NCBI GenBank assembly: GCA_023249675.1
Contig: JAHFCE010000003.1
Coordinates: 111,785 to 175,784, forward strand
From: Elusimicrobiota bacterium
Lineage (GTDB): Bacteria; Elusimicrobiota; Elusimicrobia; UBA1565; UBA9628
Length of the DNA stretch: 64,000 nucleotides
Direction: 5' to 3'
The notes below the pieces were generated by a model. The model searched no databases. It saw nothing but the letters and a program-made list of their open reading frames with translations, and was not told the DNA's origin. Shown here piece after piece: positions 1 to 55,119 of this stretch. A program made the position numbers and the translations under genes. How positions within the stretch are numbered: position 1 is the first letter of the stretch; the number at the start of each line of letters is the position of its first letter.

Positions 1-602
1 TCATCGATGTGGACAGTTTCGCGCTTGAGAACGTCAACGAGAAGACCCGCGACGCGAAAGAGAGTCCGGGCGCCACTCTGTACCTCAATATTGGCCATCT
101 CGTGACGAATCTCTCGATCGTGGAGAACGGGGTTACGCGCGTCGTGCGCGACATGTTCATTGCGGGGAGCACGATGACGAAGGCGATCATGAAGGCCTTC
201 CAGTGCGATGCCGCCAAGGCTGAGGAGCTCAAGCACTCGCGCGGCGTGTTCGTCGATCCCGAGGAGAAGGAAAAGGCGCTTGCGGACGGCGACCGCGACG
301 GCCTCGGCGTCTCGCAGGCCGTCGGCCAGGTCGCGCGCGATCTTGTCGCCGAAGTCCACCGTTCCGTCGACTTCTACCTCTCGCAGGGTCCGGACCGCTC
401 GATTGGCCGCATCATACTTGCCGGCGGCACCGCGCGCCTCAAGAATCTCGACAAGCATCTTGCGCAGGAGTTGAAGGTGCCCGTCTCGGTGCTGAATCCG
501 TTTTCTTTTGTGAAGGGCGGCGTCAACGTGCCGGAGGCGCTGTCTGCCTCGTTCGGAGTGGCGGCGGGACTCGCTTTGAGACAGAACAGGGATTGGGAAT
601 AG
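1..602 (+). CDS. pilM: Type IV pilus assembly protein PilM (actin-like ATPase fold), C-terminal ~197 aa; 5' end lies outside the window
   Basis: ORF 9..602 has no upstream stop in frame. The C-terminus ('ILAGGTARLKNLDKHLAQELKVPVSVLNPF') is typical of PilM. It is followed directly by pilN/O/P/Q. Confidence 0.85.
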   Translation, partial: IDVDSFALENVNEKTRDAKESPGATLYLNIGHLVTNLSIVENGVTRVVRDMFIAGSTMTKAIMKAFQCDAAKAEELKHSRGVFVDPEEKEKALADGDRDGLGVSQAVGQVARDLVAEVHRSVDFYLSQGPDRSIGRIILAGGTARLKNLDKHLAQELKVPVSVLNPFSFVKGGVNVPEALSASFGVAAGLALRQNRDWE

Positions 603-608
603 AGAGCG

Positions 609-1151
609 ATGATTAAGGTCAACCTCGTTCCGGCGGGAATCCTCGCCAAGGCCAAGCAGCGGCAGCTGTTGCTGCAGGCCGCGGTGCTCGGCGGCCTTAT
701 GGCTCTTGTTCTAGCGGTCGTTTCCTGCGGCCATTGGTACGGAAAGCATGCGCTTGAAATCACTCTGGCCGCCGATGAAATCGAACTCAAGCGCCTGGAC
801 CGTGTGGTCAAGCAGGTCGAGGAGCTCGAGAAGGCGGCCGCCGCCGTGCGCGCGCGTCTGAGCGTCATCGAGGACCTGCTCCTTGGACGCGCCTACTACC
901 CCGTTTTTATGTCGGAGTTCGCCCGCTCGGTTCCGGCCGGCGTCCGGGTGAACTCGATGACGACCTCAACCGTGTCGTCCGGCGCCATCAAGCTCGTGAT
1001 CTCCGCCGCTGCGAACTCGAATGAGGACATTGCGGCCTGGGTGAAGACCCTGGAGAAAAACGCCAAGTTCAGCTTGATTGAGCTTGGGGCCGTTAACGCC
1101 GCGGTGGCTTTCTATAACTTTTCGATGACGGCGACCTACACAAGTAAATAA
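609..1151 (+). CDS. pilN: Type IV pilus inner-membrane assembly protein PilN (single TM plus coiled coil)
   Basis: 180 aa with an N-terminal 'VNLVP', one TM helix and a coiled-coil periplasmic part. It sits between pilM and pilO, 6 bp after the pilM stop. Confidence 0.75.
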   Translation: MIKVNLVPAGILAKAKQRQLLLQAAVLGGLMALVLAVVSCGHWYGKHALEITLAADEIELKRLDRVVKQVEELEKAAAAVRARLSVIEDLLLGRAYYPVFMSEFARSVPAGVRVNSMTTSTVSSGAIKLVISAAANSNEDIAAWVKTLEKNAKFSLIELGAVNAAVAFYNFSMTATYTSK

Positions 1152-1152
1152 A

Positions 1153-1698
1153 ATGGCCATGCAACTGTCGAAGCAGCAGCAGCAATACCTCGGCGCCGGC
1201 GCCGTGCTGTTCGTCGTCCTCGGCGCTGTCTATGTGAAGTTCTTTTGGCTGCCCATCGCGCAGGCCAAGGCCGAGGCCACCGAGAAGATCGCTCAGATCG
1301 AGGCCAAGATCGTGAAGGCCAAGCAGCAGGCGGCCCGCCTCGAGCGCCTGCAGGCTGAAATCGCGAGCCTGAATGAGCGTGCAGCCGAGGCCGAGAAGCG
1401 GCTGCCGAAGACGAAGTCCGTGCCCGACATCCTGCTTGCGATCTCTGGGCTCGCGCAGAAGAATCGCGTGGTGATTCAGAGTTTCGCGCCGGGACCGCAG
1501 AAGAGCCAGACATACTTTATCGAGCTGGCTTATCCTCTTGCGGTGCGTGGTTCCTATCACAATATTGGCCGCTTTCTGGCTGCCCTCTCGCTCGAGGAGC
1601 GGATATTCAATGTGAGGGACATCAATTATCCATCGGCCGACGCTTTTGGGGACATGACTGTGACCCTGACCTTGCTCTCGTATCAGTACAAAGGATGA
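1153..1698 (+). CDS. pilO: Type IV pilus assembly protein PilO
   Basis: 181 aa with an N-terminal TM, a coiled coil and a C-terminal ferredoxin-like region. It starts 1 bp after the pilN stop and overlaps pilP by 4 bp. Confidence 0.75.
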   Translation: MAMQLSKQQQQYLGAGAVLFVVLGAVYVKFFWLPIAQAKAEATEKIAQIEAKIVKAKQQAARLERLQAEIASLNERAAEAEKRLPKTKSVPDILLAISGLAQKNRVVIQSFAPGPQKSQTYFIELAYPLAVRGSYHNIGRFLAALSLEERIFNVRDINYPSADAFGDMTVTLTLLSYQYKG

Positions 1699-2177
1699 TA
1701 ACCTTCGCCCTCGTTTTACTTTTCGCGATGGCCGGTCCCACGCAAGCGGGACCGGCGCCGTCACCGGCCGCGTCAACGGGCGCCATTTTGCCGATTGGAG
1801 CTTCGACGCAGACCGTGTCGAGCCTCTACACCGGCGACCGCGTGCGCGATCCCTTTCTGCCCTCCGCGATGGGCGTCACCGGCCCGCGCCGAGTCGAGGA
1901 TGCGAAGACAGCCGGCTCTATGGTCTTGGACATTCACAGCATGCTTCTGCGCGGTATCATGAAGGACCCAAAAATCGACTACGCGCTGTTCACCTCCGAG
2001 GATGGCGGCACCTACCTTTTGCGCGGCGGCAAGCTCTACAACGAACGCAATAAGCCGGTCACGGGCATCACGGGCGTCATCAAACTCAAGCAAAAGACCG
2101 TGGAGCTCATCACGTCCGATAAGGACGTTCAGGTATTTCGTCTCGGCGAAGATGAGAAAGAAAAAGAGAAGCCCTAG
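1695..2177 (+). CDS. pilP: Type IV pilus assembly protein PilP-like (signal peptide, periplasmic)
   Basis: 160 aa with a signal peptide and a beta-rich C-terminal domain ending in a Lys/Glu-rich tail. Its position between pilO and pilQ matches the canonical pilMNOPQ order. Confidence 0.6.
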   Translation: MITFALVLLFAMAGPTQAGPAPSPAASTGAILPIGASTQTVSSLYTGDRVRDPFLPSAMGVTGPRRVEDAKTAGSMVLDIHSMLLRGIMKDPKIDYALFTSEDGGTYLLRGGKLYNERNKPVTGITGVIKLKQKTVELITSDKDVQVFRLGEDEKEKEKP

Positions 2178-2190
2178 CCGCGGAGAATTT

Positions 2191-4260
2191 ATGATCAATC
2201 ACCAATTGAAGAAAATCCTGTCCGCGGCGCTCGCCGTCGTCCTCTCCGTCCCTGCGGGCGTCGTTGAGGCCTTCGCCGCCGCGCCGGCCCCCGCTGTCTT
2301 CCAGGGCGTTGAAGTTTCCGACGATTTCGTCACGATCAAGCTCAGCGCCAACGCCCCATACAACAGCTTCTTGACCCAGACGCCTCCGCGTCTCGTGCTA
2401 GAGCTTCTCGACACCAAGCACGATGGGCCGACCCAGTCCGCTCCGGGCAAGGGAACGTTCCTTGCCGGCGTGCGTTCGGGCCAGTTCGAGAAGTCGCCGC
2501 GCCTGATCACCCGTGTTGTGATGGATCTTGTGAAGATGGCGGGCTATAAGGTCGGCGCGATCTCGGGGGGGCTGACCGTTCAGCTGATCGGCTCGGTTGA
2601 TGGCGGATCCAAGAACACGGTTTTGGCGCCGGCCCCCATCCCTGTGCCGGCTCTTCCGGCCATTAGGCCCGTTATCGCCAAGCGCGCGGCTGCGGCTAAA
2701 GCCCCCGCTCCCATCGTCGAGGTTCCCGTGGCCGCTGCGCCCGCTTACATGGCGCCGGCCCCGGAACCGGAAGTGCCGAAGGCGAGACAGCGTGTCAATG
2801 TGACGGCCGCGCAGGCGATGCGGCGCGCCGGTCTCGATGGGAGCATGACCCTGGAACTCGCAGCCGCGGCTCAAAGTTCAGATATCACGAGGAGTAAGGT
2901 TGATCCTGTCGGCGAGGTCGAGGATGGGGACAAGGTCGGGCACGCGGCCGGCGGGCGCATTTTCCGCGACATCATGAGCCGTCTGCCTCGCGACATCGTG
3001 ACGCTCGATTTCGACAATACCGACATCCGCGATGTGATTCATCTGCTCGCGGCGAAGGCCAAGGTTAATATCGTGTTCGGCCCGGACGTCACCGGCTCGC
3101 TGACGTTGCATCTTACCGATGTTCCATTTAATGAGGCCTTCCGCACAGCTCTGTCCATGATGAAACTGACGACCGATCAAGTCGGCGACAATATCCTGCG
3201 CGTGATCACCCCGGCCGAACTCACCAAGCAGCGCACCACCTCGACGGCCATCACCAAGGTCTATGTCCTCAACTACGCGAAGGCAACCGAAGTCAAGACA
3301 ACGATCGATTCTGTTCGGATGGCGGAAGGCCGCAATGGCAGCTCGACCGCCGACACGAAGACGAACACCTTGATCGTGACCGACTCCCTCGAGGGCCAGC
3401 TGTCCACGGAGAACCTGATCGCGCAGATGGACCAGCGGCCGCGCCAGGTGCTCATCGAGACCAAGATCATCGAGATCAACGCGAACTCCGGCCTCAACTA
3501 CGGTGTGCAGTGGGACTATCAAAGCGCCCAGCGGGGAACAATCGGTGGCCAGAAGGGAGTCTCGCTGATCGGCACGACCTCCAATCCAGCGGCGGCCTCC
3601 AGCCCCGTCCTCAATCCCCTTGACCAGAACGCGAACACCGCCGTTGGCGCCGGCGCATCCGGCCGCGGCACGGGCGTGGCGCTCGCCGCCGACCGCGTCT
3701 TCGGCGCGCTGACCCTGGGCCGCATCACGAACAACTTCATTCTGAACGCGACCTTGACTGCGGCGGCGTCCGAGGGCAAGGCGAAGATTCTCTCCGAGCC
3801 CAAAATCGCCACGCTCAACAACCAGGCGGCGAACATCAATGTCACGACGCAGATTCCCTATGTGACCTCGAACGTGGCCTCCACCGGCGTGCAGACCCAG
3901 TCGGTTGCCTATGTAACTACTGGCATTCAGTTGACGGTCACGCCGAGCATCAACGCCGACGGCCGCATCACCCTTCAGGTCAACCCGAACGTGAGCCAGC
4001 CTTCCGCGACCGCGGCCGGCAGCACGCAGACCGGCGCTCCCGCCGTTGATTCGCGCAACGCCACTACGACCGTGCTCGTGCGCGACGGCGAGACGATTGT
4101 GATCGGCGGCCTGATTACCGACACGATGCAGGACACGATTTCCAAGGTTCCCCTGCTCGGCGACATTCCGATCCTGGGTTGGCTGTTCAAGAAGAAGACC
4201 AAGACTCGCGTACGCGCGGAGCTCCTGATCTTCGTGACGACGAGAATATTGCCGGACTAA
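2191..4260 (+). CDS. pilQ: Type IV pilus secretin PilQ (AMIN domain, Pro/Ala linker, N0/N1 and secretin domains)
   Basis: The ORF 2002..4260 most likely starts at ATG 2191, which has a GGAGAA Shine-Dalgarno 5 nt upstream and lies just after the pilP stop. The C-terminal secretin motif reads 'VLVRDGETIVIGGLI...VPLLGDIPILGWLFKKK'. The N-terminus looks like an AMIN domain. Confidence 0.9.
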   Translation: MINHQLKKILSAALAVVLSVPAGVVEAFAAAPAPAVFQGVEVSDDFVTIKLSANAPYNSFLTQTPPRLVLELLDTKHDGPTQSAPGKGTFLAGVRSGQFEKSPRLITRVVMDLVKMAGYKVGAISGGLTVQLIGSVDGGSKNTVLAPAPIPVPALPAIRPVIAKRAAAAKAPAPIVEVPVAAAPAYMAPAPEPEVPKARQRVNVTAAQAMRRAGLDGSMTLELAAAAQSSDITRSKVDPVGEVEDGDKVGHAAGGRIFRDIMSRLPRDIVTLDFDNTDIRDVIHLLAAKAKVNIVFGPDVTGSLTLHLTDVPFNEAFRTALSMMKLTTDQVGDNILRVITPAELTKQRTTSTAITKVYVLNYAKATEVKTTIDSVRMAEGRNGSSTADTKTNTLIVTDSLEGQLSTENLIAQMDQRPRQVLIETKIIEINANSGLNYGVQWDYQSAQRGTIGGQKGVSLIGTTSNPAAASSPVLNPLDQNANTAVGAGASGRGTGVALAADRVFGALTLGRITNNFILNATLTAAASEGKAKILSEPKIATLNNQAANINVTTQIPYVTSNVASTGVQTQSVAYVTTGIQLTVTPSINADGRITLQVNPNVSQPSATAAGSTQTGAPAVDSRNATTTVLVRDGETIVIGGLITDTMQDTISKVPLLGDIPILGWLFKKKTKTRVRAELLIFVTTRILPD

Positions 4261-4263
4261 GCG

Positions 4264-5625
4264 GTGCTTGCCGGACTCGTCGGGACTGTTGTCGCCTCGG
4301 GCCTCCTGCTTCGAGGCGCGTGGGATCTCTGGGCGCAGTCGTTGGTTCTTCTTGGGCTCCTGGCTGCCTCCGCGGCCTGGTTGTGCGCCCGCCTCGTGTC
4401 GGGCTGGTTGCCTCGCCCTGAGGATAGAACGTTCGGTTGGATCCTCGCGCTCGTATCCCTGTCCGCGCTGTCGGCGTTCCTGAGCCCAGTTCCGGCCTAC
4501 TCGCGCCCGGCCTGGGCGGCGTCGGCGGCGGGCCTCTCCCTGTTCCCACTTATCTCCGTTCTCGATTCCGAGGGTCGAGAGCGTGTCGAGCGTTTCCTGC
4601 GCGGGGCGGGCTGGGCATTGCTCCTGCTCGCCGTCTATCAGAGACTTCATAGCGAGAGCCGCCCCCCCGCGACATTCATTAATCAGAACGCGTTTGCCGG
4701 AGCGATCCTGCTGCTGCTGCCCATCGCGTCGCGCGCGGGTCATTGGGCGCTCGCTGGCGGCCTGCTCCTGTGTCTGTGGTGGACGCGGTCCGTCGGGGCT
4801 TGGCTCGGGCTTGCGGCCGCTTTGCTCCTGCATCGGCGCGCGGCCGGCGCGGCAGCGTTTTGGCCAGCCGCCGCCGCGGGTTTCGTCGGCCTTGTTGCCG
4901 CCTACGCCAAGTTCCAGCCGCCGGAAACTTTGCATCGCGTCGAGTGGTGGAAGGCGGCTTGGCGCATGGCGGCCGAGGCGCCCTGGCTCGGCCTCGGTCC
5001 CGGCTCGTACGCGTACGCCCTGCCGGCGTACGCTGCCGGACGCCCAGAGCTGTCGTCCGTGTTCGCGCATCAATACTTTCTCGAGACCGCCGCCGAGCGC
5101 GGCTGGCCGTACGTCCTGCTGTGGATCCTGGGGCTCGCCGTGCTGCTCAAGCCGGCACCCGCCGCGCGGCGCTTCGGACCCGTCGCGGCCCTGATCCACG
5201 GACTCGTGGATTATCCGCTCTCCGTGCCCGGCGTGTTCTGGCTTTTCTGCGCGTCGACAGCGCTCGCGGCGCCGGAGTCGGGGCGTTCTGTCAACGTCCC
5301 GCTGCGCTGGCGTCCGGTTCTGTGCGCGAGCGTTCTCATCGCGGCTTCTGCGTCCGGAATTTTCGTATGGCGAGGCTGGTCGGCCGACCGTCTGCGTGCC
5401 CAGGGGATCGAGTCGATCCGTGCGGGACGTCTGGATGAGGCGGCCAGCACGCTGTCCGCTTCCGAGGTTTTGTCGCCTCATCCGGAGGCCGCGCGCCTGC
5501 GGGCGGAGATCATCCTGGCGCGCGGCGGCTCGGCGGTCGAGGCTGCGGGGCACCTCGCGCGTGCGATCGCACTCGATCCCTATCGCGCCTCGAACCAGAA
5601 GATGCTCAGGGCTTTGCAGAGATGA
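4264..5625 (+). CDS. Polytopic membrane protein with an O-antigen ligase/Wzy_C-like domain and a C-terminal TPR-like segment; candidate O-oligosaccharyltransferase or ligase
   Basis: GTG start 3 bp after the pilQ stop. About 10 TM helices. It has a Wzy_C-like core ('WWTRSVGAWLGLAAALLL', 'HQYFLETAAERGW') and a C-terminal helical TPR-like tail. Confidence 0.6.
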   Translation: MLAGLVGTVVASGLLLRGAWDLWAQSLVLLGLLAASAAWLCARLVSGWLPRPEDRTFGWILALVSLSALSAFLSPVPAYSRPAWAASAAGLSLFPLISVLDSEGRERVERFLRGAGWALLLLAVYQRLHSESRPPATFINQNAFAGAILLLLPIASRAGHWALAGGLLLCLWWTRSVGAWLGLAAALLLHRRAAGAAAFWPAAAAGFVGLVAAYAKFQPPETLHRVEWWKAAWRMAAEAPWLGLGPGSYAYALPAYAAGRPELSSVFAHQYFLETAAERGWPYVLLWILGLAVLLKPAPAARRFGPVAALIHGLVDYPLSVPGVFWLFCASTALAAPESGRSVNVPLRWRPVLCASVLIAASASGIFVWRGWSADRLRAQGIESIRAGRLDEAASTLSASEVLSPHPEAARLRAEIILARGGSAVEAAGHLARAIALDPYRASNQKMLRALQR

Positions 5626-7581
5626 ATGAACGCTGAACGCCTTCGTATCGGTCCGGAGACCCTTGTCGCCACGGCGCTCGCGGCAGCCGTCTTGGCGCTT
5701 CTCGGCGTCGCGTGGGCGCGCGGGCTGTCGGTGTTCTGGAGCGATCTCACTTATCTGCATCACGGCTGGCGCGCCGCGCCCGCCATGCTCGTCGTGGCCG
5801 GGCGCGCGCCTCTCTGGGAGCCGGCGCTTTACTTCGGCATGCCGATGGCGGGCACGATGCAAGGCGGGCTTTTTTATCCGGTGACTCTTTTCTACTACCT
5901 GTTCGGCTTCGCGACCGCGACCGCGTTGTTTCAGGCCTTGCATCTTTTCATCGCCGGGTGGCTGTGCGCGCTGTGGCTTCGTTCCTGCCGTTTGTCCTGG
6001 GGAGCGAGCTTTGGCGGGGCCTTTCTGTTCGCTTTTGGGGGCGTAATGATCGCGCGCCTTCCCTTCCTCAATCATCTCTCGACGTTGGCCTGGGCTCCCG
6101 CGCTCGCGCTGTTCTTTAGGCGTCCCGCGCCGTTGGGCCTCGCGTTGGCGTTGATGGTTCTTGCCGGCTACCCGACCTTCATCCCGGGGTGCGCGGCTGC
6201 CGCGTGGGTCGCGGCCTATGCGGCCCGCTCCAAGCGTTGGTCTTGGAGCGTCGCCGCCATCGACTGGGTCCTGGCGGCTGTGCTCGCCGGCGCGCTCAGC
6301 GCGGCGCAGCTTCTTCCGGGTTTGGAGCTTGCGACCCATTCCCGGCGTTCCTCCGGTGTCGGCCTTGCCGAGGCGTTGACGTGGGGCTTTACGCCTGCCG
6401 ATCTGCTCCAATGGATTGGGCCGCTGGCGGTCGGACTGTCGCATTTCCGTCCGTCCATCGATTGGACGATGTGCGTTTACCTTGGACTCGTGGGCGCGGC
6501 GGCGGCGGCTTACGGCGCCTGCGTTCTGCCGCGGCGCCGGGCTCTTGTTCTCGGCGCGGCCATTGTGGGCGTCGCATTCCTGACGCTCGGAGCCTCTCAC
6601 CCGCTGTCCGGCGCGTTGTGGCGCGTCCTGCCGCCCCTGCGCTTCGTCCGTTACCCGGGCAACCTGGCTTATATCGCTCTGCTCCCGTTGGCCGCGCTCG
6701 CCGCGGCGGGCTTCTCGGACCGTCGGGCGGGGCCGGTGCTCGTGATTCTGTCGGCGTTTGAGCTATTGGCGCTCGGCCGTTGCGCGACGCCGCTCGCTCC
6801 CCGCGCCCTATTCGCCGAACCTGGCCTGCTCGTGCGGACCCTGCAGAAAAGCCAGGGGGACGCGCGTTATCTGATTTCGCCGAGGGCCTTGCAGGCGTCG
6901 AAGGGCTCAGACATCTTCGACTGGAAGCAGCGCCTTTACGGCCTGACGAATGCGCCCTATCGCTTGCGTGCGGCCGCCAATTTTGGCGAGCCTTTGGTGC
7001 CGTCATCCTCCTATGCGGTGATGGACGCGTTGTTGAGTCTGCCGAGCGCCGACGCGGCTGCGGGCTGGATGCCGTGGATTGGGGCCGCGCGCCTGCTGAC
7101 CCCAGAACCGGCGACCTCGCCGCTGCTCACAGCCGAGACACGTTCTCTTTGGGATATCTCGAAATTGCGCGCAAGTCCGGTCTCGCTCGCCTATCAATTG
7201 ACGCCGCAGGATGGCGCGGCCCTGTCGGTGGCGTGGCCGGCGATTCCGCCGGACGCCGCCCGTTCGGCGCTCGAGGTGCGCCGTCCGCGCGAGGACCGTT
7301 TTGAAGTGTCCGGCGCAGGCGCGGGCTGGGCGTACGTCGCGGAGCCGCGCTTTCCGGGCTGGACGACCGTGCTCTCTGTTCCCTCGGGAGAGCGGCGCGT
7401 GACGCCCGAGCCGGCGCTGGGCGCCTTCCAGAAAGTTGAGACCCCGGCCGGTCCTTGGACCTTGCGCTGGCGCTATGAGCCGCAGCCGTGGCGGTTCGGG
7501 CTGCTTGCGACGTGGGCGGCGTGGATAGTCCTGGCGGCCTATTGGTATCATCGAACTCTCGCCTTAGGAGGGATTCAATGA
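5626..7581 (+). CDS. YfhO-family GT-C fold membrane glycosyltransferase (paralog 1)
   Basis: 651 aa polytopic protein. The N-terminal loop motif 'PLWEPALYFGMPMAGTMQGGLFYP' resembles the YfhO signature. Its ATG abuts the preceding TGA. A large C-terminal periplasmic domain follows. Confidence 0.6.
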   Translation: MNAERLRIGPETLVATALAAAVLALLGVAWARGLSVFWSDLTYLHHGWRAAPAMLVVAGRAPLWEPALYFGMPMAGTMQGGLFYPVTLFYYLFGFATATALFQALHLFIAGWLCALWLRSCRLSWGASFGGAFLFAFGGVMIARLPFLNHLSTLAWAPALALFFRRPAPLGLALALMVLAGYPTFIPGCAAAAWVAAYAARSKRWSWSVAAIDWVLAAVLAGALSAAQLLPGLELATHSRRSSGVGLAEALTWGFTPADLLQWIGPLAVGLSHFRPSIDWTMCVYLGLVGAAAAAYGACVLPRRRALVLGAAIVGVAFLTLGASHPLSGALWRVLPPLRFVRYPGNLAYIALLPLAALAAAGFSDRRAGPVLVILSAFELLALGRCATPLAPRALFAEPGLLVRTLQKSQGDARYLISPRALQASKGSDIFDWKQRLYGLTNAPYRLRAAANFGEPLVPSSSYAVMDALLSLPSADAAAGWMPWIGAARLLTPEPATSPLLTAETRSLWDISKLRASPVSLAYQLTPQDGAALSVAWPAIPPDAARSALEVRRPREDRFEVSGAGAGWAYVAEPRFPGWTTVLSVPSGERRVTPEPALGAFQKVETPAGPWTLRWRYEPQPWRFGLLATWAAWIVLAAYWYHRTLALGGIQ

Positions 7582-9419
7582 CCCGCCGTGACCTTCTCGT
7601 CGTTGGAGCCCTCGCGGCCGCCGTCCTCGCGCTGACAGCGCCCGTCTGGGCGCGACCGGGCCAAGCCTTCTTCAACCACGGCGACCTCTACGCCTATCAT
7701 TGGCCGCTGCGCCATCACACGGCGGCTGCAATCATTGAAGGCCATCTTCCTTTTTGGAATCCGTACGTCATGCTTGGTGTTCCGCACGCGGCCAACCCGC
7801 AGGCCGCATTATTTTATCCCGCCTCCGTTCTGGGTTTCCTCCTGCCCGCCATGACGGCCTTGGTTTGGGATCAGATCCTTCATCTCTTGTGGGCGGCGCT
7901 CGGCGCGTTCGTACTCGCGCGTTCGGGCCGCTTGCCGCGCGCGGCCGCCGCGGCGCTCGCGACGGCCTACGCGCTCTCGCCTTTTTTGGTCTACCGCGTG
8001 ACGGCGGGCATCCCGACCTTGGTCGCCGCGCTGTCTTGGGTGCCGTGGGCTTGGCTCGCGTGGCTCGGCGGTTCGGCGCCCCTGCTGGCGGCCGTCTTCG
8101 CTCTCCAGTTCTTCTCCGGCCACCCGCAGTTTCTTCTCGTCAACGCCGTTGGCATGGGTGTATGGGCGCTTTCGAAGGGTTCTTCGCGCGCGGTATTTCT
8201 GCTGTTCACGGGCGCGTGTGGCGCGTTGTTGCTTGCCGCGGTGCAGTGGCTGCCGACGCTTGAGCTGCTGCGCGGCTCCAGCCGTTCCGGCTGGCCGGCG
8301 CAATTCACGGCCGCCTATTCCATTCGTCCCGCGGACCTGCTGATGTGGCTGTCTCCCGGAGCGCTTGGCACGCCGTTCAACGGCGTCTGGGGCGGAGAGG
8401 TGTCCGTATTCTACGAAAGCGGCGGGGTCTGGCTTGGCTGCGCGGTGCTCGCGCTTGCGGTTGGAGGCCTCCGACTCGGGCGTGCGCGGCTCGGGCCGCT
8501 CTTGCTTATTGTGCTCGGCATTATTCTGGCGCTTGGGGCCAACGGCCCGCTTGGCCCGCTTCTGCACGCGCCCGGCTTCTCTTATCTGCGCACTCCCTCG
8601 CGCTGGTCCTTCCTTTCCTTGTGGGGTCTCTGGCTGCTTGCGGGCGCGGGCGCGCGGGCGGTGTTCTCATTGCCCAAGGTTGCGGGGGCGCTGTTCATCC
8701 TCCCGCTCATCGTGTTGGCGGAGCTCGGTTTTTGGGATTTAAGATTCCTTAAATCCATGAACGCGCGGGCGTTCACCCAGGGGAGCCCCGCCGTCGTCGC
8801 GCGCCTGGCCGGCCGCCCATCGCGTGTCCTCACCGATCCCGCGCTCGCCAATCCCAATAAGGCGATGGTCTACCGGATGCGCAACGTCAATGGTTATGAC
8901 GCGTTCTATCCCGCGAGCGCCGCTCGATGGGCCGCGCAAGCCGAGGGCGCTCCGGCCGCGGATCCGAGCTGGGTGCTGGCGTCGCGCTGGAAGTCGGATG
9001 CGGCTGTGCGCGCGGGCGTGTCCGCCCGCCTGGCGCCCTTCGGAATCGAGGAACGGGACGGCGCTTGGCCGCTGGCATCGTTTCTCAACGCGACAGGTGG
9101 CCGCGTGACCCCGGATCCGATTCTTCGCATTGACCGTCCCGAGCGTTGGCGAGTAACGGGATCAATCCCGAAGGGCGCGGTCGCGGTCGCGCTCGCCGAA
9201 ACGCGCTGGCCCGGCTGGCGCGCGGCCCTAGATGGGCGCGAGGCTCCGCTCGCGGCGTGGGGCCCTGCGTTCCAGTTCGTCTCCCTCACGCCGAATACGA
9301 CCGACGTTGATCTCCGCTTTGATTTTTCGCCGACCCGTTGGTTCTTATGGGCGGCTCTGTCGGTCGTCGCCTGGGTCTCTTGGTTTGTCGCCTTCCTGTG
9401 TCGCGCGGAGCCCGTATGA
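7578..9419 (+). CDS. YfhO-family GT-C fold membrane glycosyltransferase (paralog 2)
   Basis: The motif 'LPFWNPYVMLGVPHAANPQAALFYP' is the classical YfhO WNPY..G.P motif. The ATG at 7578 overlaps the upstream stop as ATGA. Polytopic N-terminus with a periplasmic C-terminal domain. Confidence 0.7.
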   Translation: MTRRDLLVVGALAAAVLALTAPVWARPGQAFFNHGDLYAYHWPLRHHTAAAIIEGHLPFWNPYVMLGVPHAANPQAALFYPASVLGFLLPAMTALVWDQILHLLWAALGAFVLARSGRLPRAAAAALATAYALSPFLVYRVTAGIPTLVAALSWVPWAWLAWLGGSAPLLAAVFALQFFSGHPQFLLVNAVGMGVWALSKGSSRAVFLLFTGACGALLLAAVQWLPTLELLRGSSRSGWPAQFTAAYSIRPADLLMWLSPGALGTPFNGVWGGEVSVFYESGGVWLGCAVLALAVGGLRLGRARLGPLLLIVLGIILALGANGPLGPLLHAPGFSYLRTPSRWSFLSLWGLWLLAGAGARAVFSLPKVAGALFILPLIVLAELGFWDLRFLKSMNARAFTQGSPAVVARLAGRPSRVLTDPALANPNKAMVYRMRNVNGYDAFYPASAARWAAQAEGAPAADPSWVLASRWKSDAAVRAGVSARLAPFGIEERDGAWPLASFLNATGGRVTPDPILRIDRPERWRVTGSIPKGAVAVALAETRWPGWRAALDGREAPLAAWGPAFQFVSLTPNTTDVDLRFDFSPTRWFLWAALSVVAWVSWFVAFLCRAEPV

Positions 9420-10408
9420 CCCGCAGGAAGGTCTTGTCGGGAGTTGTCGCCTTCGCGATCACGGGAATCTTCCTGTGGCTGGCTCTGCGCAAGGTTGAGT
9501 TCGCAGCGCTCGGCGCGGCCCTGTCGTCGGCGCGCCTGGTCTGGCTGATCCCGATGGTTGCCATCGTCTATTTTGACCTGCTCGTGCGTGCCGTGCGCTG
9601 GCGCGTCCTGCTCTCTCTCGCGCGCGTTCAGCCCGCGCCGGTGTGGGACCTCCTCAAGCTCGAGGCGATCGGTCTTGCGGTCAACAACGTCCTGCTGCTG
9701 CGCCTTGGCGAGCTTGCGCGCGCGGGCCTTGCGGCCCGCCGCCTGGGCATTCCGGCGGCCGCAGCGCTCGCGAGCGTGGCCGTCGAGCGCGCGCTCGACG
9801 TGGCCGCCCTTCTGACCATCTTCGTGCTCGCCTGCCGGTTGGCGCCCGGCATTGCGCCGGTCGCGGTCGTGCGCGCAGCGTTGCTGCTGCTCGCGGGCGC
9901 GATCGGAGCTTTGATCATCCTGGCCGCGGCGGAAAGCTCGTTGGCGCCAGGCGGTTTTGCCGAGAGCCGTCTACGCCGCTGGCCCCGAGTGCATAACTTC
10001 ATCGAGCAACTGGCGCTCGGCGCCGCGGTGCTTCGCTCTCCCGCCGCTGCCGCACAGGCCGCGTGCCTGAGCCTACTGCTGTGGACCGTGGATGCGGCTG
10101 TGTATTGGGCGGGGGCGTACGCGTTCGGCCTCGGCGGTCTGATGGACTATCCGCGGGCGGTCCTGACCTTGTCGTGGGCGGGGGCGATCTCCGCGATCCC
10201 GGCCGCGCCCGGCTCGATCGGCACGTTTGAGGCCTGCATCGTGTCGATCCTTCACACCTTCGGCGCAGCGCCCGAAACCGCTTTGGCGTACGCTTTGTTT
10301 ACGCACATGACCATGTATCTTCTGGTGACGGTGACGGGGCTCGTGTTCTTGTCGCGCGAGGGCGTGTCGCTAGCACGCCTGCGCGAGGACGTCGAGCGCG
10401 ACGCATGA
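9416..10408 (+). CDS. Lysylphosphatidylglycerol-synthase-TM-like (UPF0104, 'flippase-like') integral membrane protein
   Basis: ATG at 9416 in an ATGA overlap. About 8 TM helices. The start 'RKVEFAALGAALSSARLVWLIPMVAIVYFDLLVRAVRWRVLL' is typical of this family, which is usually partnered with GT2 polyprenyl-phosphate glycosyltransferases. Confidence 0.6.
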   Translation: MTRRKVLSGVVAFAITGIFLWLALRKVEFAALGAALSSARLVWLIPMVAIVYFDLLVRAVRWRVLLSLARVQPAPVWDLLKLEAIGLAVNNVLLLRLGELARAGLAARRLGIPAAAALASVAVERALDVAALLTIFVLACRLAPGIAPVAVVRAALLLLAGAIGALIILAAAESSLAPGGFAESRLRRWPRVHNFIEQLALGAAVLRSPAAAAQAACLSLLLWTVDAAVYWAGAYAFGLGGLMDYPRAVLTLSWAGAISAIPAAPGSIGTFEACIVSILHTFGAAPETALAYALFTHMTMYLLVTVTGLVFLSREGVSLARLREDVERDA

Positions 10409-11430
10409 AGCGCAGTCTGCTCGTCATCCTGGCGTGCCCCGTCTGCGGCGGCGACCTCACCTGCGCCCTGCTCGAAGTTGACCCGCGCCATGATGCGGAA
10501 ATCGAAGAAACGATGCTTGCCTGCAAGTTGTGCGCCCGGGAGTATCCGGTGGTCGGCGGCGTGCCGCGCCTGCGCCCTCCGAATCCCGTCCTGCGCGCGA
10601 CTGCCAAGACGCGCGAAGCGTTCGGTTGGGAGTGGCTGCGCTATCCTGGCTCGCTGTCCGGCGACAAGGATATTTTTCTTGAGGAGACGATGCTGCCGCC
10701 GCGCGAGCTCGCGGGCAAGCTCGTTCTTGACGCGGGCTGCGGCATGGGCCGCTACAGCGCCGTCGCTCTTTCTTTGGGGGCCGAGGTCGTGGCGGTCGAC
10801 ATGTCCGAGAGCCTCGAGCGCGTCGCCGCGCTCGCCCGAGATCAGCCGAAGCTTCACCCGGTCGAGGCCGATCTGCTTCATCCACCGTTCAAGAAGCGCG
10901 TCTTCGACGTCGCCTACAGCCAAGGCGTTCTGCACCACACCGCCGATACGCGTGCCGCTTTTGCGGCGGTGGCAGCGCTCGTCAAGCCGCGAGGCCTGTT
11001 CTCCGTGTGGTTGTACGGCAAGGCCGGGCGCTACTGCGATTTTGCATCAAACCCGCTCAAGCCCGGACGCGGCTGGATCGCCCGCCATCGGAGGGCCGCG
11101 TGGGTCCTCGTGCTCCTGCGTCACGCTGTCAGCGACCTCGTGCGCGCGTTCACGACGCGAATACCCATCCCCGTTGTTTACGCGCTGTGCCATCCGCTGA
11201 CCTGGCTCGGCGTCGTGCCCGGCCTGAGGTGGTTTACCTACTCTGTAGATCCGCGCTATCAGGTCCGTCTCATCGAGAACTTTGATTGGATTTCGCCGCC
11301 CTACCAGTGGCATCACACGAAAGAGGAACTGCTGCGGTGGTGCGCCGCAGAGGGCTTCTCAGTCGTCCGTGTCCTGCCGCACGGTTTGGTGCCCAAGCCC
11401 GGCGTTCTTGGCCGAAAGAATTCCCCATGA
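10405..11430 (+). CDS. Trm112-like zinc-ribbon fused to a class I SAM-dependent methyltransferase
   Basis: The N-terminal 'CPVCGG...CKLCAREYPVVGGVP' is a Trm112-like fold. 'LVLDAGCGMGRYS' is the methyltransferase motif I. ATGA overlap with the previous gene. Confidence 0.7.
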   Translation: MKRSLLVILACPVCGGDLTCALLEVDPRHDAEIEETMLACKLCAREYPVVGGVPRLRPPNPVLRATAKTREAFGWEWLRYPGSLSGDKDIFLEETMLPPRELAGKLVLDAGCGMGRYSAVALSLGAEVVAVDMSESLERVAALARDQPKLHPVEADLLHPPFKKRVFDVAYSQGVLHHTADTRAAFAAVAALVKPRGLFSVWLYGKAGRYCDFASNPLKPGRGWIARHRRAAWVLVLLRHAVSDLVRAFTTRIPIPVVYALCHPLTWLGVVPGLRWFTYSVDPRYQVRLIENFDWISPPYQWHHTKEELLRWCAAEGFSVVRVLPHGLVPKPGVLGRKNSP

Positions 11431-12557
11431 CCAAGCCGAGGACGCGGGTCGTCATGGTGAGTGCTGGTTTTTGGCCTGCCGTGGGAGGCGCGGAGCGCCA
11501 AGCGCTCGAGCTTTCGCGTGAACTGCGTGGGCGCGGCGCGGACGTGCTCGTGCTCACGCGCCGCGTCGGCTGCGCGCCATCCCGTGAGGAGGTGCATGGC
11601 GTGCCGGTGCGGCGCTTGCGCGTGTTCGGGACCGACGCCTTCGACTCCCTCTCTTTTCTCTTCGGCGCGCTTGGCTGGCTGCTCAAGCATGGCGGCGACT
11701 ATGACGCGATCCATGCTCACCTTGCCGGTTCGCCTGCGCTCGCGGCCGCCTTGGCCGGACGCTGGCTCGGCAAACCCGTGTTGATCAAGCTCGGCGGGGG
11801 GCGCGGCATTGGCGAGCTTGCCGTCTCCTCGCGCACTTATCTTGGCCGGCTCAAACTCCGCCTGCTGGCCCGGCTTCAGCCGCGCTTTCTCGCCGTAGTT
11901 CCTGATCTCGCCGCCGAGGCGCGCGAGCATCTTGGCGATGTGCTGATCGAGGTGTTGGCGAACGGAGTGGACGTGAACCGTTATAAGCCCGTTTCCCCAG
12001 AGGAGAGACAGGCCATGCGCGCGCGCCTGGGCTGGACGGGAACGGTCTTCCTTTATACGGGGAGGCTCTCGTGGGAAAAGCGCCTGCCTTGGTTCGCAAA
12101 AATATGGAATCAAGCGACGCAGGATCGCGAAGCGATCCTGGTTCTCGTTGGTGAGGGACCGGAGCGAGCCCTCATCGAGGCGTCGTTTCCGGCGGGCTCC
12201 TGCCGTATCCGCATTCTGCCGGCCGTGGACGATATTTCCGAGTTCTATGCCGCTGCCGACGCCTTCGTCCTGCCCTCCGTGTCCGAAGGACTTTCTAATT
12301 CATTGCTCGAGGCGATGGCCTCGGGACTTGCGGTGATCGCGAGTGCGGTCGGCGGAAGTGCTACGACGATCGAGGACGGCGTCACGGGGCTTTTGTTTGC
12401 GCGCGATGACGAGGCGGCTGCGGCGGCCTGCGTGCGCCGTGTGCTTGACCGGCCGGATCTGGCTGCGAAGCTGGGGGCCCATGCGAGGCGAGCCTGCGAG
12501 GAGCGGTACTCGCTGTCGCGCGTCGCGGCACGCCTTGAGGAGTTGTACACTGTCTGA
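11427..12557 (+). CDS. GT4-family (GT-B fold) glycosyltransferase
   Basis: Start at 'MTKPRTRVVMVSAGFWPAVGGAERQALEL', in an ATGA overlap. The C-terminal half carries an 'E..E'-type GT4 motif ('SEGLSNSLLEAMASGLAVIAS'). Confidence 0.8.
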   Translation: MTKPRTRVVMVSAGFWPAVGGAERQALELSRELRGRGADVLVLTRRVGCAPSREEVHGVPVRRLRVFGTDAFDSLSFLFGALGWLLKHGGDYDAIHAHLAGSPALAAALAGRWLGKPVLIKLGGGRGIGELAVSSRTYLGRLKLRLLARLQPRFLAVVPDLAAEAREHLGDVLIEVLANGVDVNRYKPVSPEERQAMRARLGWTGTVFLYTGRLSWEKRLPWFAKIWNQATQDREAILVLVGEGPERALIEASFPAGSCRIRILPAVDDISEFYAAADAFVLPSVSEGLSNSLLEAMASGLAVIASAVGGSATTIEDGVTGLLFARDDEAAAAACVRRVLDRPDLAAKLGAHARRACEERYSLSRVAARLEELYTV

Positions 12558-12563
12558 TCGAAC

Positions 12564-14486
12564 ATGTGCGGCATTTGTGGCGTCGTTTACGGCGATGGAC
12601 GTGCTCCTGATAAAGGGGTTCTCAAGCGCGCCAACGATCAGATCGCGCACCGCGGTCCCGATGACGAGGGCTACCATCTTGACGCGCCCGTCGGCCTCGC
12701 GATGCGGCGCCTTTCCATCATCGATCTCAACACCGGACATCAGCCGATCTCGTACGCGAACGAGAGCCTGTGGGTCGTCCTCAACGGCGAGATTTACAAT
12801 TATCAAGAGCTGAGGGTCGAGCTCGAGGCCAAGGGCCATCGGTTCAAGACCAAATCCGACACCGAGGTCATCCTCGCGCTGTATCAGGACGAAGGGCCTC
12901 ATTGCGTGGACAGGCTGCGCGGCATGTTCGCGCTTGCGGTGTGGGACAAGAATGCGCGCCGCCTGTTCCTGGCGCGCGACCGCATAGGCAAAAAACCGTT
13001 GTGCTACGCGGTTCGCCCGGATGGGACGCTCTTATTCGGCTCCGAGCTTCGGTGTCTGTTCTCTCTTGACCCGTCTTTGTCCCGCGAGATCGACCCGGTC
13101 GCCGTGGACATGTATCTCACTTTGCAGTACATCCCGTCGCCGCGCACGATCTACCTTTCCGCCCGCAAGCTTCCCCCGGCTCATACGTTGACCTGGCAAG
13201 ATGGCAAGATTTCTGTCGACCGCTACTGGGACCTGCCGATCGGACAGAAGCCCGTCACAACTGACTTCGAAGAGGCCAAGGGCCTACTGCGCGAGACCTT
13301 AACGGAAGCCACGCGCCTGCGCATGATCTCTGATGTGCCGCTCGGTGCGTTTTTGTCCGGCGGGGTCGACTCTTCGATCATCGTGGCGCTGATGTCGGGC
13401 CTCTCCCCCAAGCCAGTCAAGACCTTTTCGATCGGTTTTGAAGAAGAGCGTTTTTCGGAAATCAAATACGCGCGCCTCATCGCCGACCGCTACAAGACCG
13501 ATCACACGGAGTTCATCGTCAAGACCGAGATGGCCGACGTGCTTCCGAAGCTCGCCTGGCATTACGGCGAGCCCTACGCCGACGCCTCGGCCTTGCCGAG
13601 CTACTACGTCGCCCGCGAGACGCGCAAGTTCGTTACGGTGGCGCTCAACGGCGACGGCGGCGACGAGAACTTCGCCGGCTACATCCGCTATTTCGCGATG
13701 AAGGCCGCGCGGCTGACCGATGCGCTTCCCGGCCCGGTGCTGTCGGCGCTGCGCGCCGGCGCCGAGTTGTTGCCCGAGCACGATGCGCCGCTGGGCAATA
13801 TCTGGCGGGCCAAGCGCTTCCTACGCTCGATCCTGTCGAACGACATGGCCGGGCGGCATCTGAAGATGGTCGGCTACTTCTCCGAGGACGACAAGCCTGC
13901 GCTCTATTCCGAGTCGTTCAGGCTTCGCCTGAACGACTCGATCGGCGAGGCTCTGCGTTACATGCGCGCCGCGTTCGCCGCGTGCGAGGGCGAGGATTTC
14001 GTCAACCGCCTGCTGTGCGTGGACTTCAAGACCTATCTGCCGGAATGCCTGATGGCGAAGGTGGACGTGGCGACCATGGCGTGTTCGCTTGAAGGCCGCT
14101 CGCCGTTGTTGGATCACGTTTTCGTTGAAACGGCCTTCCGCATGCCGGGCGATTGGAAGCTGAAAGGGCTGCGCGGTCACAAGTACATCATGAAAGAAAC
14201 CTTCAAGGACCTCTTGCCGGAAGACATTCTCAGCCGCCCGAAGATGGGCTTCGGCATTCCGCTTGGCGCGTGGTTTCGCGGCGGGCTTAAGAACTTCTGG
14301 GAAGAGAACGTGCTGTCGTCGCAGGCGCTGGCGCGAGGCTACTTCAAAGAGAAGGCCATCCGTGGTCTTTGGAACGAGCATCAAAGTGGCCAGCGCGACC
14401 ACGGCTACCGCTTGTGGGCATTATTGATGCTGGAGTTGTTCCATCGCCATGCTGATGAGGCGCTCGCCTCGCCTATCCGAGCTTGA
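12564..14486 (+). CDS. asnB: Asparagine synthetase B-like glutamine-dependent amidotransferase
   Basis: 'MCGICGV' is the N-terminal nucleophile Cys of the class II GATase domain. It also has the PP-loop 'SGGVDSS'. Homologs of this kind occur in glycan clusters as sugar amidotransferases. Confidence 0.85.
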   Translation: MCGICGVVYGDGRAPDKGVLKRANDQIAHRGPDDEGYHLDAPVGLAMRRLSIIDLNTGHQPISYANESLWVVLNGEIYNYQELRVELEAKGHRFKTKSDTEVILALYQDEGPHCVDRLRGMFALAVWDKNARRLFLARDRIGKKPLCYAVRPDGTLLFGSELRCLFSLDPSLSREIDPVAVDMYLTLQYIPSPRTIYLSARKLPPAHTLTWQDGKISVDRYWDLPIGQKPVTTDFEEAKGLLRETLTEATRLRMISDVPLGAFLSGGVDSSIIVALMSGLSPKPVKTFSIGFEEERFSEIKYARLIADRYKTDHTEFIVKTEMADVLPKLAWHYGEPYADASALPSYYVARETRKFVTVALNGDGGDENFAGYIRYFAMKAARLTDALPGPVLSALRAGAELLPEHDAPLGNIWRAKRFLRSILSNDMAGRHLKMVGYFSEDDKPALYSESFRLRLNDSIGEALRYMRAAFAACEGEDFVNRLLCVDFKTYLPECLMAKVDVATMACSLEGRSPLLDHVFVETAFRMPGDWKLKGLRGHKYIMKETFKDLLPEDILSRPKMGFGIPLGAWFRGGLKNFWEENVLSSQALARGYFKEKAIRGLWNEHQSGQRDHGYRLWALLMLELFHRHADEALASPIRA

Positions 14487-15084
14487 GGGCGGACATAATC
14501 AGCTGGACGCCGATGGCGGCCAACAGCAAACCCATCAGGCGCGTGATGATGTTGAGTAGGGTGGAGGAGAGCTTCTTTGCGCTCGCCGCCGCGACGGTCA
14601 GCACCCAGTAGCTGAGCAAGGCCACCAAGGCGATGAGCGCGTAGAAGAGCATTTTTTGGGGAGCTCCCGACGCGCGGCCGCTGAGCACCATCGAGGTCGT
14701 GATTGCGCCGGGCCCGGCCAAGAGGGGGACCGCCAAAGGCGTAATCGCGATGTCGTCCTTGCTCATCCCTTCGGCGAACTCCTCAGGCGTCTCTCGCATC
14801 GGCGACTTCTGGGCGCGGATCATGTCGAGCGCGGACAGCAGAAGCACAAGGCCGCCGGCGATCTGGAAGGCGGGCAAAGTGATTCCGAACAGGCGGAAGA
14901 TCGCGGGTCCGAGCAGGGCGAAGGCCGACATGACGCCAGCACAGGTGATGCAGGCCGTGCGGGCCATGCGCCGCCGTTGCTCGGCGGTGTCGCGGGCCGT
15001 CATCGCGAGGAAGGTTGGGACCGCCGCGAAGGGGTCCACGATCGCGAAGAGGGATCCGAAGGTTAGAAACGCGTACTCGATCAC
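14473..15084 (-). CDS. MarC-family (UPF0056) integral membrane protein
   Basis: 203 aa with ~6 TM helices; 'LFAIVDPFAAVPTFLAMT' is the MarC signature. Its stop overlaps the asnB stop convergently by 14 bp. Confidence 0.7.
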   Translation of the reverse strand: MIEYAFLTFGSLFAIVDPFAAVPTFLAMTARDTAEQRRRMARTACITCAGVMSAFALLGPAIFRLFGITLPAFQIAGGLVLLLSALDMIRAQKSPMRETPEEFAEGMSKDDIAITPLAVPLLAGPGAITTSMVLSGRASGAPQKMLFYALIALVALLSYWVLTVAAASAKKLSSTLLNIITRLMGLLLAAIGVQLIMSALKLG

Positions 15085-15101
15085 TGGCCCATTTTACTAC
15101 A

Positions 15102-16298: not shown

Positions 16299-16299
16299 C

Positions 16300-54959: not shown

Positions 54960-55119
54960 CGCCTCAGTATGCCCGGCGCACCCCGCGCCCGCGAGAGTCT
55001 TGCGGCCCAAACCGTCTAGGTCTGATATCTGAACGCAAACGCCCCGAAAGACCCATGCCTTTTAAGTCGGTTGCTGGTAGCATACGCTGTCGCTGAAATC
55101 CAAACTTTGAGGTTTTAAA

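Follow-up and report, generated by a model that had tools for sequence, protein, structure and literature searches.

YfhO-like glycosyltransferases of the GT-C type rank among the largest uncharacterised groups of bacterial membrane enzymes (PMC10584680), with acceptors known in a few Firmicutes only. In the CsbB/GtcA/YfhO systems of Bacillus subtilis, Staphylococcus aureus and Listeria monocytogenes, a C55-phosphate-linked sugar is made by a GT-A enzyme, flipped, and transferred to teichoic acids (PMC5836110, PMC8035078). Here, we analyse a pair of adjacent YfhO-like genes, GT-C1 and GT-C2, in a 64,000-nucleotide stretch of the genome of an Elusimicrobiota bacterium (contig JAHFCE010000003.1; this whole stretch is called the window), together with the related loci of its phylum. 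The pair had been singled out from the DNA alone in an earlier reading, referred to below as the original prediction.

Other members of the family act on proteins. Streptococcus pyogenes PgtC2, a YfhO-family protein, glucosylates Ser/Thr-rich disordered regions of membrane proteins together with GtrB, and in Streptococcus mutans PgfS and PgfM1 put N-acetylgalactosamine on Ser/Thr-rich regions, with loss of PgfM2 shifting glycoprotein mobility (PMC12041528). The Pgf operon is thus an earlier example of two YfhO-type enzymes that are not redundant. Teichoic acid, the acceptor named in the original prediction, is thus right for CsbB/GtcA/YfhO but is not the only one known, as PgtC2 and PgfM1 act on proteins. 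A YfhO-like 'dark' family of ~665 amino acids was flagged in 2023 as a new glycosyltransferase family; this 'Component 27' (Durairaj et al., Nature 2023) consists of uncharacterised transmembrane (TM) proteins with a median length of ~665 amino acids, stands apart from reference YfhO, and is linked to STT3/PglB (PMC10584680). YfhO is also conserved across Bacteroidota, where it has been proposed as the missing protein O-oligosaccharyltransferase of general O-glycosylation (bioRxiv 10.64898/2026.07.27.740950).

The window contains the two adjacent, same-strand open reading frames (ORFs) that had been reported:

5626..7581, plus strand: GT-C1 (ORF1), YfhO-like GT-C glycosyltransferase, 651 amino acids, ATG start; loop 1 with D40, H45, R49 and P62-L-W-E-P66
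7578..9419, plus strand: GT-C2 (ORF2), YfhO-like GT-C glycosyltransferase, 613 amino acids; loop 1 with D36, H41, R45 and P58-F-W-N-P62

The loop motif is present in both, as APLWEPALYFGMP in GT-C1 and LPFWNPYVMLGVP in ORF2. The longest frame of ORF2 extends from 7488 to 9419 (plus strand, 643 amino acids), and its true start is almost certainly the ATG at 7578, because GGAGG lies 9 nt upstream, start and ORF1 stop share an ATGA, and the 613-residue product of public gene calls matches this position. The description of both proteins as ~650 residues long therefore suits GT-C1 and not GT-C2. Identical copies of both proteins are found on one public contig, and their close homologs all come from Elusimicrobiota metagenome-assembled genomes (MAGs), in which they are annotated 'hypothetical protein' and have adjacent locus tags. 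No third paralog was found in the window by tblastn and hidden Markov model (HMM) searches of all ORFs.

The GT-C pair is a fixed part of an Elusimicrobiota-wide operon with pilMNOPQ, and this is the new point of the analysis. A scan of one genome per GTDB species yielded 75 loci with 33-80% identity, all of them from Elusimicrobiota or unclassified MAGs, and gene order was established by tblastn of the window proteins. About 60 loci (32-80% identity) share the order pilM-N-O-P-Q, Wzy_C-like gene, GT-C1, GT-C2, UPF0104, methyltransferase and GT4, and three distant homologs with annotated contigs have the same block. Around GT-C1 and GT-C2 the window has the following genes:

9..602, plus strand: pilM, 3' part (the gene runs off the window start); PilM_2 76.7 bits; heads the conserved block in related loci
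609..1151, plus strand: pilN; Pfam PilN 32.5 bits; syntenic in ~55 loci
1153..1698, plus strand: pilO; PF04350 PilO found on the orthologs of loci L002 and L003; syntenic
1695..2177, plus strand: small pilP-like gene, named by its position between pilO and pilQ; syntenic; no Pfam match recorded for the orthologs
2191..4260, plus strand: pilQ secretin, start ATG 2191 (longest ORF from 2002); Secretin 183 bits plus Secretin_N and AMIN
4264..5625, plus strand: Wzy_C-family membrane protein with a C-terminal TPR-like tail; Wzy_C 48 bits (cut-off 31.7), weak TPR_16
9416..10408, plus strand: UPF0104 / LPG_synthase_TM 'flippase-like' membrane protein, 330 amino acids; LPG_synthase_TM 132 bits, TIGR00374; ATGA overlap with GT-C2
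10405..11430, plus strand: Trm112-like zinc ribbon plus class I S-adenosylmethionine (SAM) methyltransferase; Methyltransf_11 63 bits, Trm112p 31 bits; ATGA overlap
11427..12557, plus strand: GT4 glycosyltransferase, 376 amino acids; Glyco_trans_1_4 114.6 bits, Glyco_transf_4 68.6 bits; ATGA overlap
12564..14486, plus strand: asparagine synthase-type amidotransferase; Asn_synthase 330 bits; TIGR03108 632.7 bits, under the 816.9 cut-off

Spacing in this block is tight. All window junctions from pilQ to GT4 are either 0-3 nt or ATGA overlaps, with the Wzy_C-like gene beginning 3 nt past the pilQ stop. The Wzy_C-like gene directly follows pilQ in 56 of the 61 loci with enough upstream flank; for the distance from the pilQ stop to its start, the median upper bound is 17 nt, and in 55 of 63 loci the distance does not exceed 150 nt; the five junctions after pilQ/Wzy_C have a median of -4 nt. 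UPF0104 lies immediately 3' of GT-C2 in 55 of 57 loci, with GT4 within 3 kb of it in 54 and the methyltransferase after it in 42 of the same number. The ATGA overlap of GT-C1 and GT-C2 recurs in 47 of 68 loci, and the pair is kept in nearly all loci despite a mutual identity of 28%. The asparagine synthase-type amidotransferase is a frequent, not universal, last gene of the block in many loci. Only three loci have the pair without pilQ and Wzy_C upstream, two of them in housekeeping surroundings; in the third (L050) it stands behind a PilB/GspE-type secretion ATPase (L050:1968-3830; T2SSE 426 bits, MshEN), which connects the pair to type IV filament genes a second time and independently.

The Wzy_C-like protein is by its domain match a predicted enzyme of the O-antigen ligase, polymerase or O-oligosaccharyltransferase type; a PDB sequence search matched its TPR tail alone, and the same search with the UPF0104 protein was uninformative for subtype. 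PilQ scores 299.9 bits against TIGR02515 (cut-off 284), and a TolC-like OEP protein is encoded at 30856-32151, so that both the secretin and the TolC-like outer-membrane protein of the original prediction are borne out; the presence of PilQ and OEP/TolC genes indicates a diderm organism. The zinc ribbon of the methyltransferase is Trm112/YcaR-like, and the location of YcaR in the lpxK-kdsB region of Escherichia coli could hint at a lipopolysaccharide (LPS) connection.

Two further features of the related loci are recorded here. Upstream of pilM, loci L002 (1-3252) and L003 (1-3441) and a JGI locus share a conserved divergent gene set that encodes a HAD hydrolase, an NTP_transf_3 nucleotidyltransferase, a 280-residue protein with no Pfam match and a class III aminotransferase; the set could be a sugar-activation pathway, and PDB sequence searches with its NTP_transf_3 and 280-residue proteins returned no relatives. 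One locus (L007, CALRXP010000062.1) is titled 'Candidatus Endomicrobium trichonymphae', an apparently doubtful label, and has the operon at 71-90% protein identity to the high-GC organism of the window.

GT-C1 and GT-C2 are full-length homologs and very old paralogs. BLASTP finds only a C-terminal match of 94 residues (E 0.001), and it is profile-profile alignment with hhalign, using 32 ORF1 and 34 ORF2 orthologs, that shows homology over the full length and a very ancient split (probability 99.95%, E 2.1e-37, 561 columns, 28% identity). A joint profile of both families, searched against 1.84 billion representatives, matched 48,492 clusters at E<=1e-3, of which 10,346 reach E<=1e-30. PF09586 (the Pfam YfhO family) was detected in 41 of 61 sampled matches (all at E<=1e-65), with a best E of 3.3e-33; one relative is named 'YfhO family protein [Elusimicrobia]', and the family of another, P0353, is uniformly PF09586. 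Because the joint profile retrieves PF09586-positive proteins, the pair is best placed as outlying members of the YfhO-like superfamily and not as plain PF09586 members. Weak YfhO matches (E<=1) occur in 9 of 32 ORF1 and 4 of 34 ORF2 orthologs, the best at ~4e-6, and ORF2 orthologs also match DUF6044 and DUF2079.

The occurrence of such a protein in a diderm, which the original prediction had treated as unusual, proves to be common, since YfhO-family proteins are widespread in diderm phyla. Relatives named 'YfhO family protein' come from Thermodesulfobacteriota, Pseudomonadota, a 'Candidatus Wunengus' MAG, Firestonebacteria, Omnitrophica, Dependentiae, Chloroflexota and Actinomycetota. L080, a MAG labelled Deltaproteobacteria, has a cluster of two TMEM260_N+TPR genes, two PMT_2-type genes, two YfhO genes and two short GT2 genes, so that clusters of several GT-C genes that include YfhO are not confined to Firmicutes. 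In view of these relatives, this cluster and the Bacteroidota YfhO, one YfhO-type enzyme in a diderm, and even two, is not in itself surprising.

Both proteins have the loop-1 signature of the superfamily: an Asp after TM1, then G-x-x-P-L/F-W-N/D/E-P ... G-x-P ... Q ... F-Y-P. When 31 sequences from both GT-C families are aligned, D40, H45, R49, G59, P62, W64, P66, G71, P73, Q79 and P85 do not vary; among 61 distant relatives the same holds for G59, P62 and G71, and D40, L63, W64, P66, P73, Q79 and P85 are conserved in at least 90%. Most of 149 distant representatives have P-[LF]-W-[NDE]-P near residue 55-60. TM1 is followed within a few residues by the invariant Asp (D40 of ORF1, D36 of ORF2), which is predicted from the basic N-termini (MNAERLR..., MTRRD...) and the positive-inside rule to be on the periplasmic side, where GT-C enzymes carry the catalytic acid.

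AlphaFold models of the pair (ORF1 pLDDT 79.3, pTM 0.83; ORF2 pLDDT 85.5, pTM 0.88) resemble the solved GT-C enzymes AftD, STT3, PglB, Pmt4 and ArnT. Foldseek with the ORF2 model lists AftD first (E 2.7e-6), then STT3, ALG12, AglB, PglB and ArnT; the fold neighbours include PglB 6GXC and STT3 7OCI as well as the heteromers Pmt1-Pmt2 (6p2r) and EmbA-EmbB (7bvf). Helices are modelled to about residue 385, strands at ~487-617 (ORF1) and ~481-583 (ORF2), and terminal helices at 620-646 and 588-610, respectively. This is the architecture of the superfamily, with a multi-helix N-terminal module, an extracytoplasmic beta-rich domain containing P-G-W, and a single C-terminal TM segment. P577-G578-W579 is invariant in both GT-C families, with G578 and W579 conserved in at least 90% of the distant relatives, and the C-terminal domain is carbohydrate-module-like. 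The original prediction had named placement in a non-GT-C family and absence of the periplasmic Asp/Glu loop as grounds for abandoning it; the models are of GT-C type and the loop is retained. We give a probability of about 0.7 to the explanation, taken as a whole, in which each GT-C would be a polytopic inner-membrane enzyme with a periplasmic site around the invariant Asp and the P-L/F-W-N/E-P loop, and the two would do different, non-redundant jobs.

Clues to the sugar donor come from genes inserted between GT-C1 and GT-C2. A GT2 gene occupies this position in L040 (11827-12657), and a GT9 heptosyltransferase-like gene plus a GT2 gene in L047 (4806-6538) and L051 (11980-13697); gaps of similar size are seen in several other loci. 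The best NCBIfam matches of the inserted GT2s, all below cut-off, are AglJ, dolichyl-phosphate (Dol-P)-hexose transferase, PpgS, PgfS and ArnC (the partner of ArnT). These are polyprenyl- or dolichyl-phosphate-sugar synthases, and the inserted GT2s are probably of this type. Their closest homologue in the window (29-32% identity) is GT2c, one of three GT2 genes in a downstream sugar cluster, so that the CsbB/GtrB-like GT2 of the original prediction has counterparts nearby:

15015..16298, plus strand: DegT-type sugar aminotransferase; DegT_DnrJ_EryC1 314 bits; clade-specific accessory cluster
16258..17004, plus strand: GT2c, short GT2 with no TM segment and a DADGSHPP motif; Glycos_transf_2 72 bits; candidate polyprenyl-phosphate-sugar synthase
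17001..17696, plus strand: second SAM methyltransferase; Methyltransf_12 and _23; its ATG at 17001 overlaps the GT2c stop
17693..18850, plus strand: GT2a, GT2 with C-terminal hydrophobic helices; best NCBIfam AglJ, Dol-P-hexose transferase, ArnC, PpgS and PgfS, all sub-cut-off
18847..19827, plus strand: NAD-dependent sugar epimerase/dehydratase/reductase; Epimerase 198.7 bits; nearest NCBIfam GDP-L-fucose synthase, 183.7 bits (cut-off 500)
19803..20552, plus strand: GT2b, short GT2, AglJ / Dol-P-hexose transferase-like
20527..23136, plus strand: second Wzy_C-family protein with a long TPR region, 869 amino acids; Wzy_C 57.6 bits, multiple TPR matches

This cluster is conserved in close relatives only, and the Wzy_C-TPR protein that ends it is weakly IctB-like.

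For the flippase, the operon position is filled by the UPF0104/LPG_synthase_TM protein; there is no room for a GtrA/GtcA gene because the genes from pilQ to GT4 abut or overlap. A metagenomic protein of 968 residues (P0245) has a GT-C2-like part (residues 3-637) fused to LPG_synthase_TM / UPF0104 (650-945), and this fusion ties UPF0104 functionally to the GT-C. Separately, in two proteins of ~1350 residues (P0436, P0444) a YfhO domain is fused to a MOP-type flippase (Polysacc_synt / MatE), which by domain content is another natural link of YfhO to flippases of lipid-linked glycans.

By analogy with the known systems, the pair most likely forms a periplasmic glycosylation module fed by lipid-phosphate sugars. 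Homology, fold, the conserved loop residues and the operon with its conservation are observed directly; donor, flippase role, catalysis and acceptor are what we infer from them. A cytoplasmic GT2 would load a sugar onto polyprenyl phosphate; the lipid-linked sugar would be flipped, probably by the co-encoded UPF0104 protein and not by GtrA/GtcA; and each GT-C would move the flipped sugar onto an extracytoplasmic acceptor. The two GT-Cs might serve successive steps or different sugars or sites, or might form a heteromer.

A number of observations weigh against this reading. Pfam and NCBIfam scans of GT-C1 and GT-C2 gave no significant match: ORF1 scores 6.8 bits against Pfam YfhO (E 2.5, cut-off 28.5), below threshold, with the weak match in register (residues 82-287 against profile positions 75-284), and ORF2 has no YfhO match at E<=10, its sole Pfam match being DUF6044 at E 6. 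The YfhO assignment of the original prediction thus stands at the level of the YfhO-like superfamily, through the joint profile, and fails at the Pfam threshold for both proteins. PDB searches with single sequences and profiles of both GT-Cs gave chance-level matches only and no YfhO-family structure, and the ORF1 model is poor in the D40 loop, with pLDDT <50 at residues 40-54 and 59-80. The core operon of this genome is without a GT2; the nearest (16258) begins 6.8 kb past the end of ORF2, and the three GT2 genes, 7-11 kb downstream, follow a break of ~0.5 kb and probably belong to another transcription unit. No GtrA/GtcA-type flippase was matched among the window proteins scanned (every gene from pilM to 24.7 kb other than pilO/pilP, and selected ORFs farther on), and that UPF0104 proteins act as flippases is itself an idea at the level of annotation only. 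A pilus-related role is burdened further: a crude six-frame search of the window with a regular expression for the prepilin motif G-F/M/Y-T/S-L/I-x-E found no pilin gene, PilN, PilO, PilP and PilQ have no Ser/Thr-rich stretch, and the GT9 of some lineages fits an LPS-type pathway equally well, as do Wzy_C and GT4. Synteny with pilQ also need not mean shared function, as aroK-aroB follow pilMNOPQ in many Proteobacteria and are not known to have a pilus role.

That the two genes are recent tandem duplicates with redundant function would suit their adjacency, shared strand, similar length and shared motifs, and in-place duplication was implied by the original prediction, whose call of homology has held up. 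A profile of one GT-C family scores ~60-125 bits against the other and 300-800 bits against its own relatives. The original prediction had also called for a phylogeny, and in a midpoint-rooted neighbour-joining (NJ) tree of 141 relatives, which is rough and without support values, GT-C1 and GT-C2 fall on either side of the root, bona fide PF09586 proteins are closer to GT-C2 than GT-C1 is, and each GT-C has nearer relatives than the other copy. With both copies retained across the phylum, recent duplication is very improbable, and it was rejected on the 28% identity, the profile scores and the tree; the low cross-profile scores and the split at the root instead point to two distinct subfamilies placed side by side. 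A reading of the pair as plain permeases or structural polytopic membrane proteins is scarcely credible: direct Pfam/NCBIfam matches are lacking and MFS transporters appear far down the Foldseek list, but the periplasmic Asp loop motif is conserved and common to thousands of YfhO-family proteins, and the GT-C fold matches and profile evidence contradict it. An obligate heteromer, in which GT-C1 and GT-C2 would form one complex (like Pmt1-Pmt2 or EmbA-EmbB) with a single acceptor and perhaps one main catalyst, accords with the ATGA overlap, which favours coupled, equimolar synthesis, with co-retention of the pair nearly everywhere, and with the heteromers among the fold matches. It is nevertheless unlikely, as no loop residue, the Asp included, is missing from either GT-C, so that neither looks degenerate, and one or two genes are inserted between them in several lineages.

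As to the acceptor of the proposed module, we tentatively favour, at somewhat less than even odds, O-glycosylation of an envelope or pilus-associated protein. In its favour are the pilMNOPQ operon shared across the phylum, the PilB-adjacent locus, the Wzy_C-like protein's TPR tail, and what is known or proposed for streptococci and Bacteroidota. That the Wzy_C-like enzyme instead handles an LPS-type glycan, or another glycan of the envelope, is possible and on balance doubtful; genes for Wzy_C, GT4 and GT9 suggest it, as do the neighbouring sugar cluster and the likeness of the GT-C C-terminal domain to carbohydrate modules. Some other acceptor is fairly unlikely. Teichoic acid is an unlikely acceptor because the organism is diderm, and the 64-kb window, the part of the genome covered here, shows no teichoic acid genes. 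The S-rich N-terminus of the long pilQ ORF was considered as an acceptor and dropped, as it lies upstream of the true start at ATG 2191. The fullest form of the LPS alternative makes Wzy_C a WaaL/Wzy-type enzyme, has GT4, methyltransferase and GT9 build a core or repeat to which the GT-Cs add side-branch sugars on the periplasmic side, in the manner of Gtr systems and ArnT, and regards the pil link as inherited gene order that carries no function. The Wzy_C domain over threshold, GT4 and the methyltransferase in the core block, the GT9 heptosyltransferase-like gene in L047 and L051, and the downstream sugar cluster (DegT, three GT2s, epimerase, second Wzy_C) are all consistent with it. We consider it on the unlikely side, given that near-zero pilQ-Wzy_C spacing is held phylum-wide down to ~32% identity, that one of the three pilQ-less loci has the pair behind a PilB-like ATPase, that no lipid A or Kdo genes are seen in the block, and that protein acceptors are documented for the YfhO family (PMC12041528). 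The most specific form of the protein reading, in which the Wzy_C-like, GT-C1, GT-C2, UPF0104, methyltransferase and GT4 genes would be a dedicated type IV pilus glycosylation system, or would make a glycan that is secreted via the PilQ machine, is likewise fairly unlikely as it stands.

Several other features of the window were noted. Its GC content is ~0.57-0.70 (2-kb windows), and its first 24 kb are a near-unbroken run of plus-strand genes. An antisense frame (2878-6600, minus strand, 1240 amino acids) lies opposite pilQ, the Wzy_C-like gene and GT-C1, and most likely stems from the high GC content and is no gene. Farther downstream, a cyclic nucleotide (cNMP)-binding and patatin-like phospholipase fusion is encoded at 39225-41255 (plus strand), and a SulP sulfate permease, STAS and cNMP-binding fusion at 50620-52824 (plus strand). 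Putative ORFs of 528 and 728 amino acids at 41227-42816 and 52821-55010 (both minus strand) have no Pfam match at E<=1e-4.

The locus ties together, in a poorly known diderm phylum, a fixed divergent YfhO-like pair, a probable UPF0104 flippase together with its fusion, and a pilus-assembly operon. Nothing relevant came out of literature searches on Elusimicrobia pili with glycosyltransferases or LPS, or on pilMNOPQ with an O-antigen ligase. Should the pilus link prove functional, pili or envelope proteins would be glycosylated by a new route, and UPF0104 proteins would gain a role; were the pilus itself glycosylated, this would be the first YfhO-type, polyprenyl-phosphate-sugar pathway on pilins or pilus-machine proteins, and the first UPF0104 lipid-sugar flippase. 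Without such a function, the block would be a common kind of envelope-glycan cluster that adds two members to a known superfamily.

Compared with CsbB/GtcA/YfhO, the Elusimicrobiota locus shares the proposed GT-A/flippase/GT-C logic, the loop-1 motif, and the arrangement of TM bundle, extracytoplasmic domain and terminal TM helix; it differs in its diderm host, the lack of a GtrA/GtcA gene in the operon, the presence of two GT-Cs in place of one, and a position outside the Pfam boundary. It is like S. mutans Pgf (PgfS, the epimerase PgfE, PgfM1 and PgfM2) and GtrB/PgtC2 in having two YfhO-type GT-Cs, in some lineages a candidate GT2 lipid-phosphate-sugar synthase in the same operon and, as proposed here, extracytoplasmic transfer. 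The likeness to Pgf extends to the GT2 that even lies between the GT-Cs in L040, L047 and L051, and to the weak matches of GT2a and the inserted GT2s to the PgfS model. Pgf, however, belongs to monoderm Firmicutes and has clear PF09586 proteins, whereas here the match is sub-threshold, the flippase candidate is UPF0104, no gene for an adhesin or Ser/Thr-rich acceptor is seen, and a Wzy_C-like gene and pilMNOPQ are part of the operon. Component 27 resembles the pair in size and in its fold neighbours PglB 6GXC and STT3 7OCI, and was described without operon context or a pilus link. The Bacteroidota YfhO is similarly conserved throughout a diderm phylum and has a protein as its proposed acceptor, but it is a single gene that passes the PF09586 gathering threshold, with whole-glycan transfer proposed and no pilus operon, and its function is likewise predicted.

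Pilin glycosylation in Pseudomonas and Neisseria involves TfpO/PilO and PglL (both Wzy_C family) and the GT-C enzyme TfpW, which are encoded beside the pilin gene; it also combines type IV pilus genes with Wzy_C and GT-C enzymes that act at the periplasmic face. TfpW is not known to be YfhO-like; here the genes follow pilQ, the neighbours are pilMNOPQ with no pilin gene found in the window, and the Wzy_C-like protein is without PglL-specific domain matches. On these comparisons, GT-C1 and GT-C2 are new and divergent predicted members of a known superfamily in a variant of the multi-component periplasmic glycosylation scheme, and the variant is set apart by its two GT-Cs, by UPF0104 in place of GtrA, by a Wzy_C-like partner, and by its embedding in a pilus operon.

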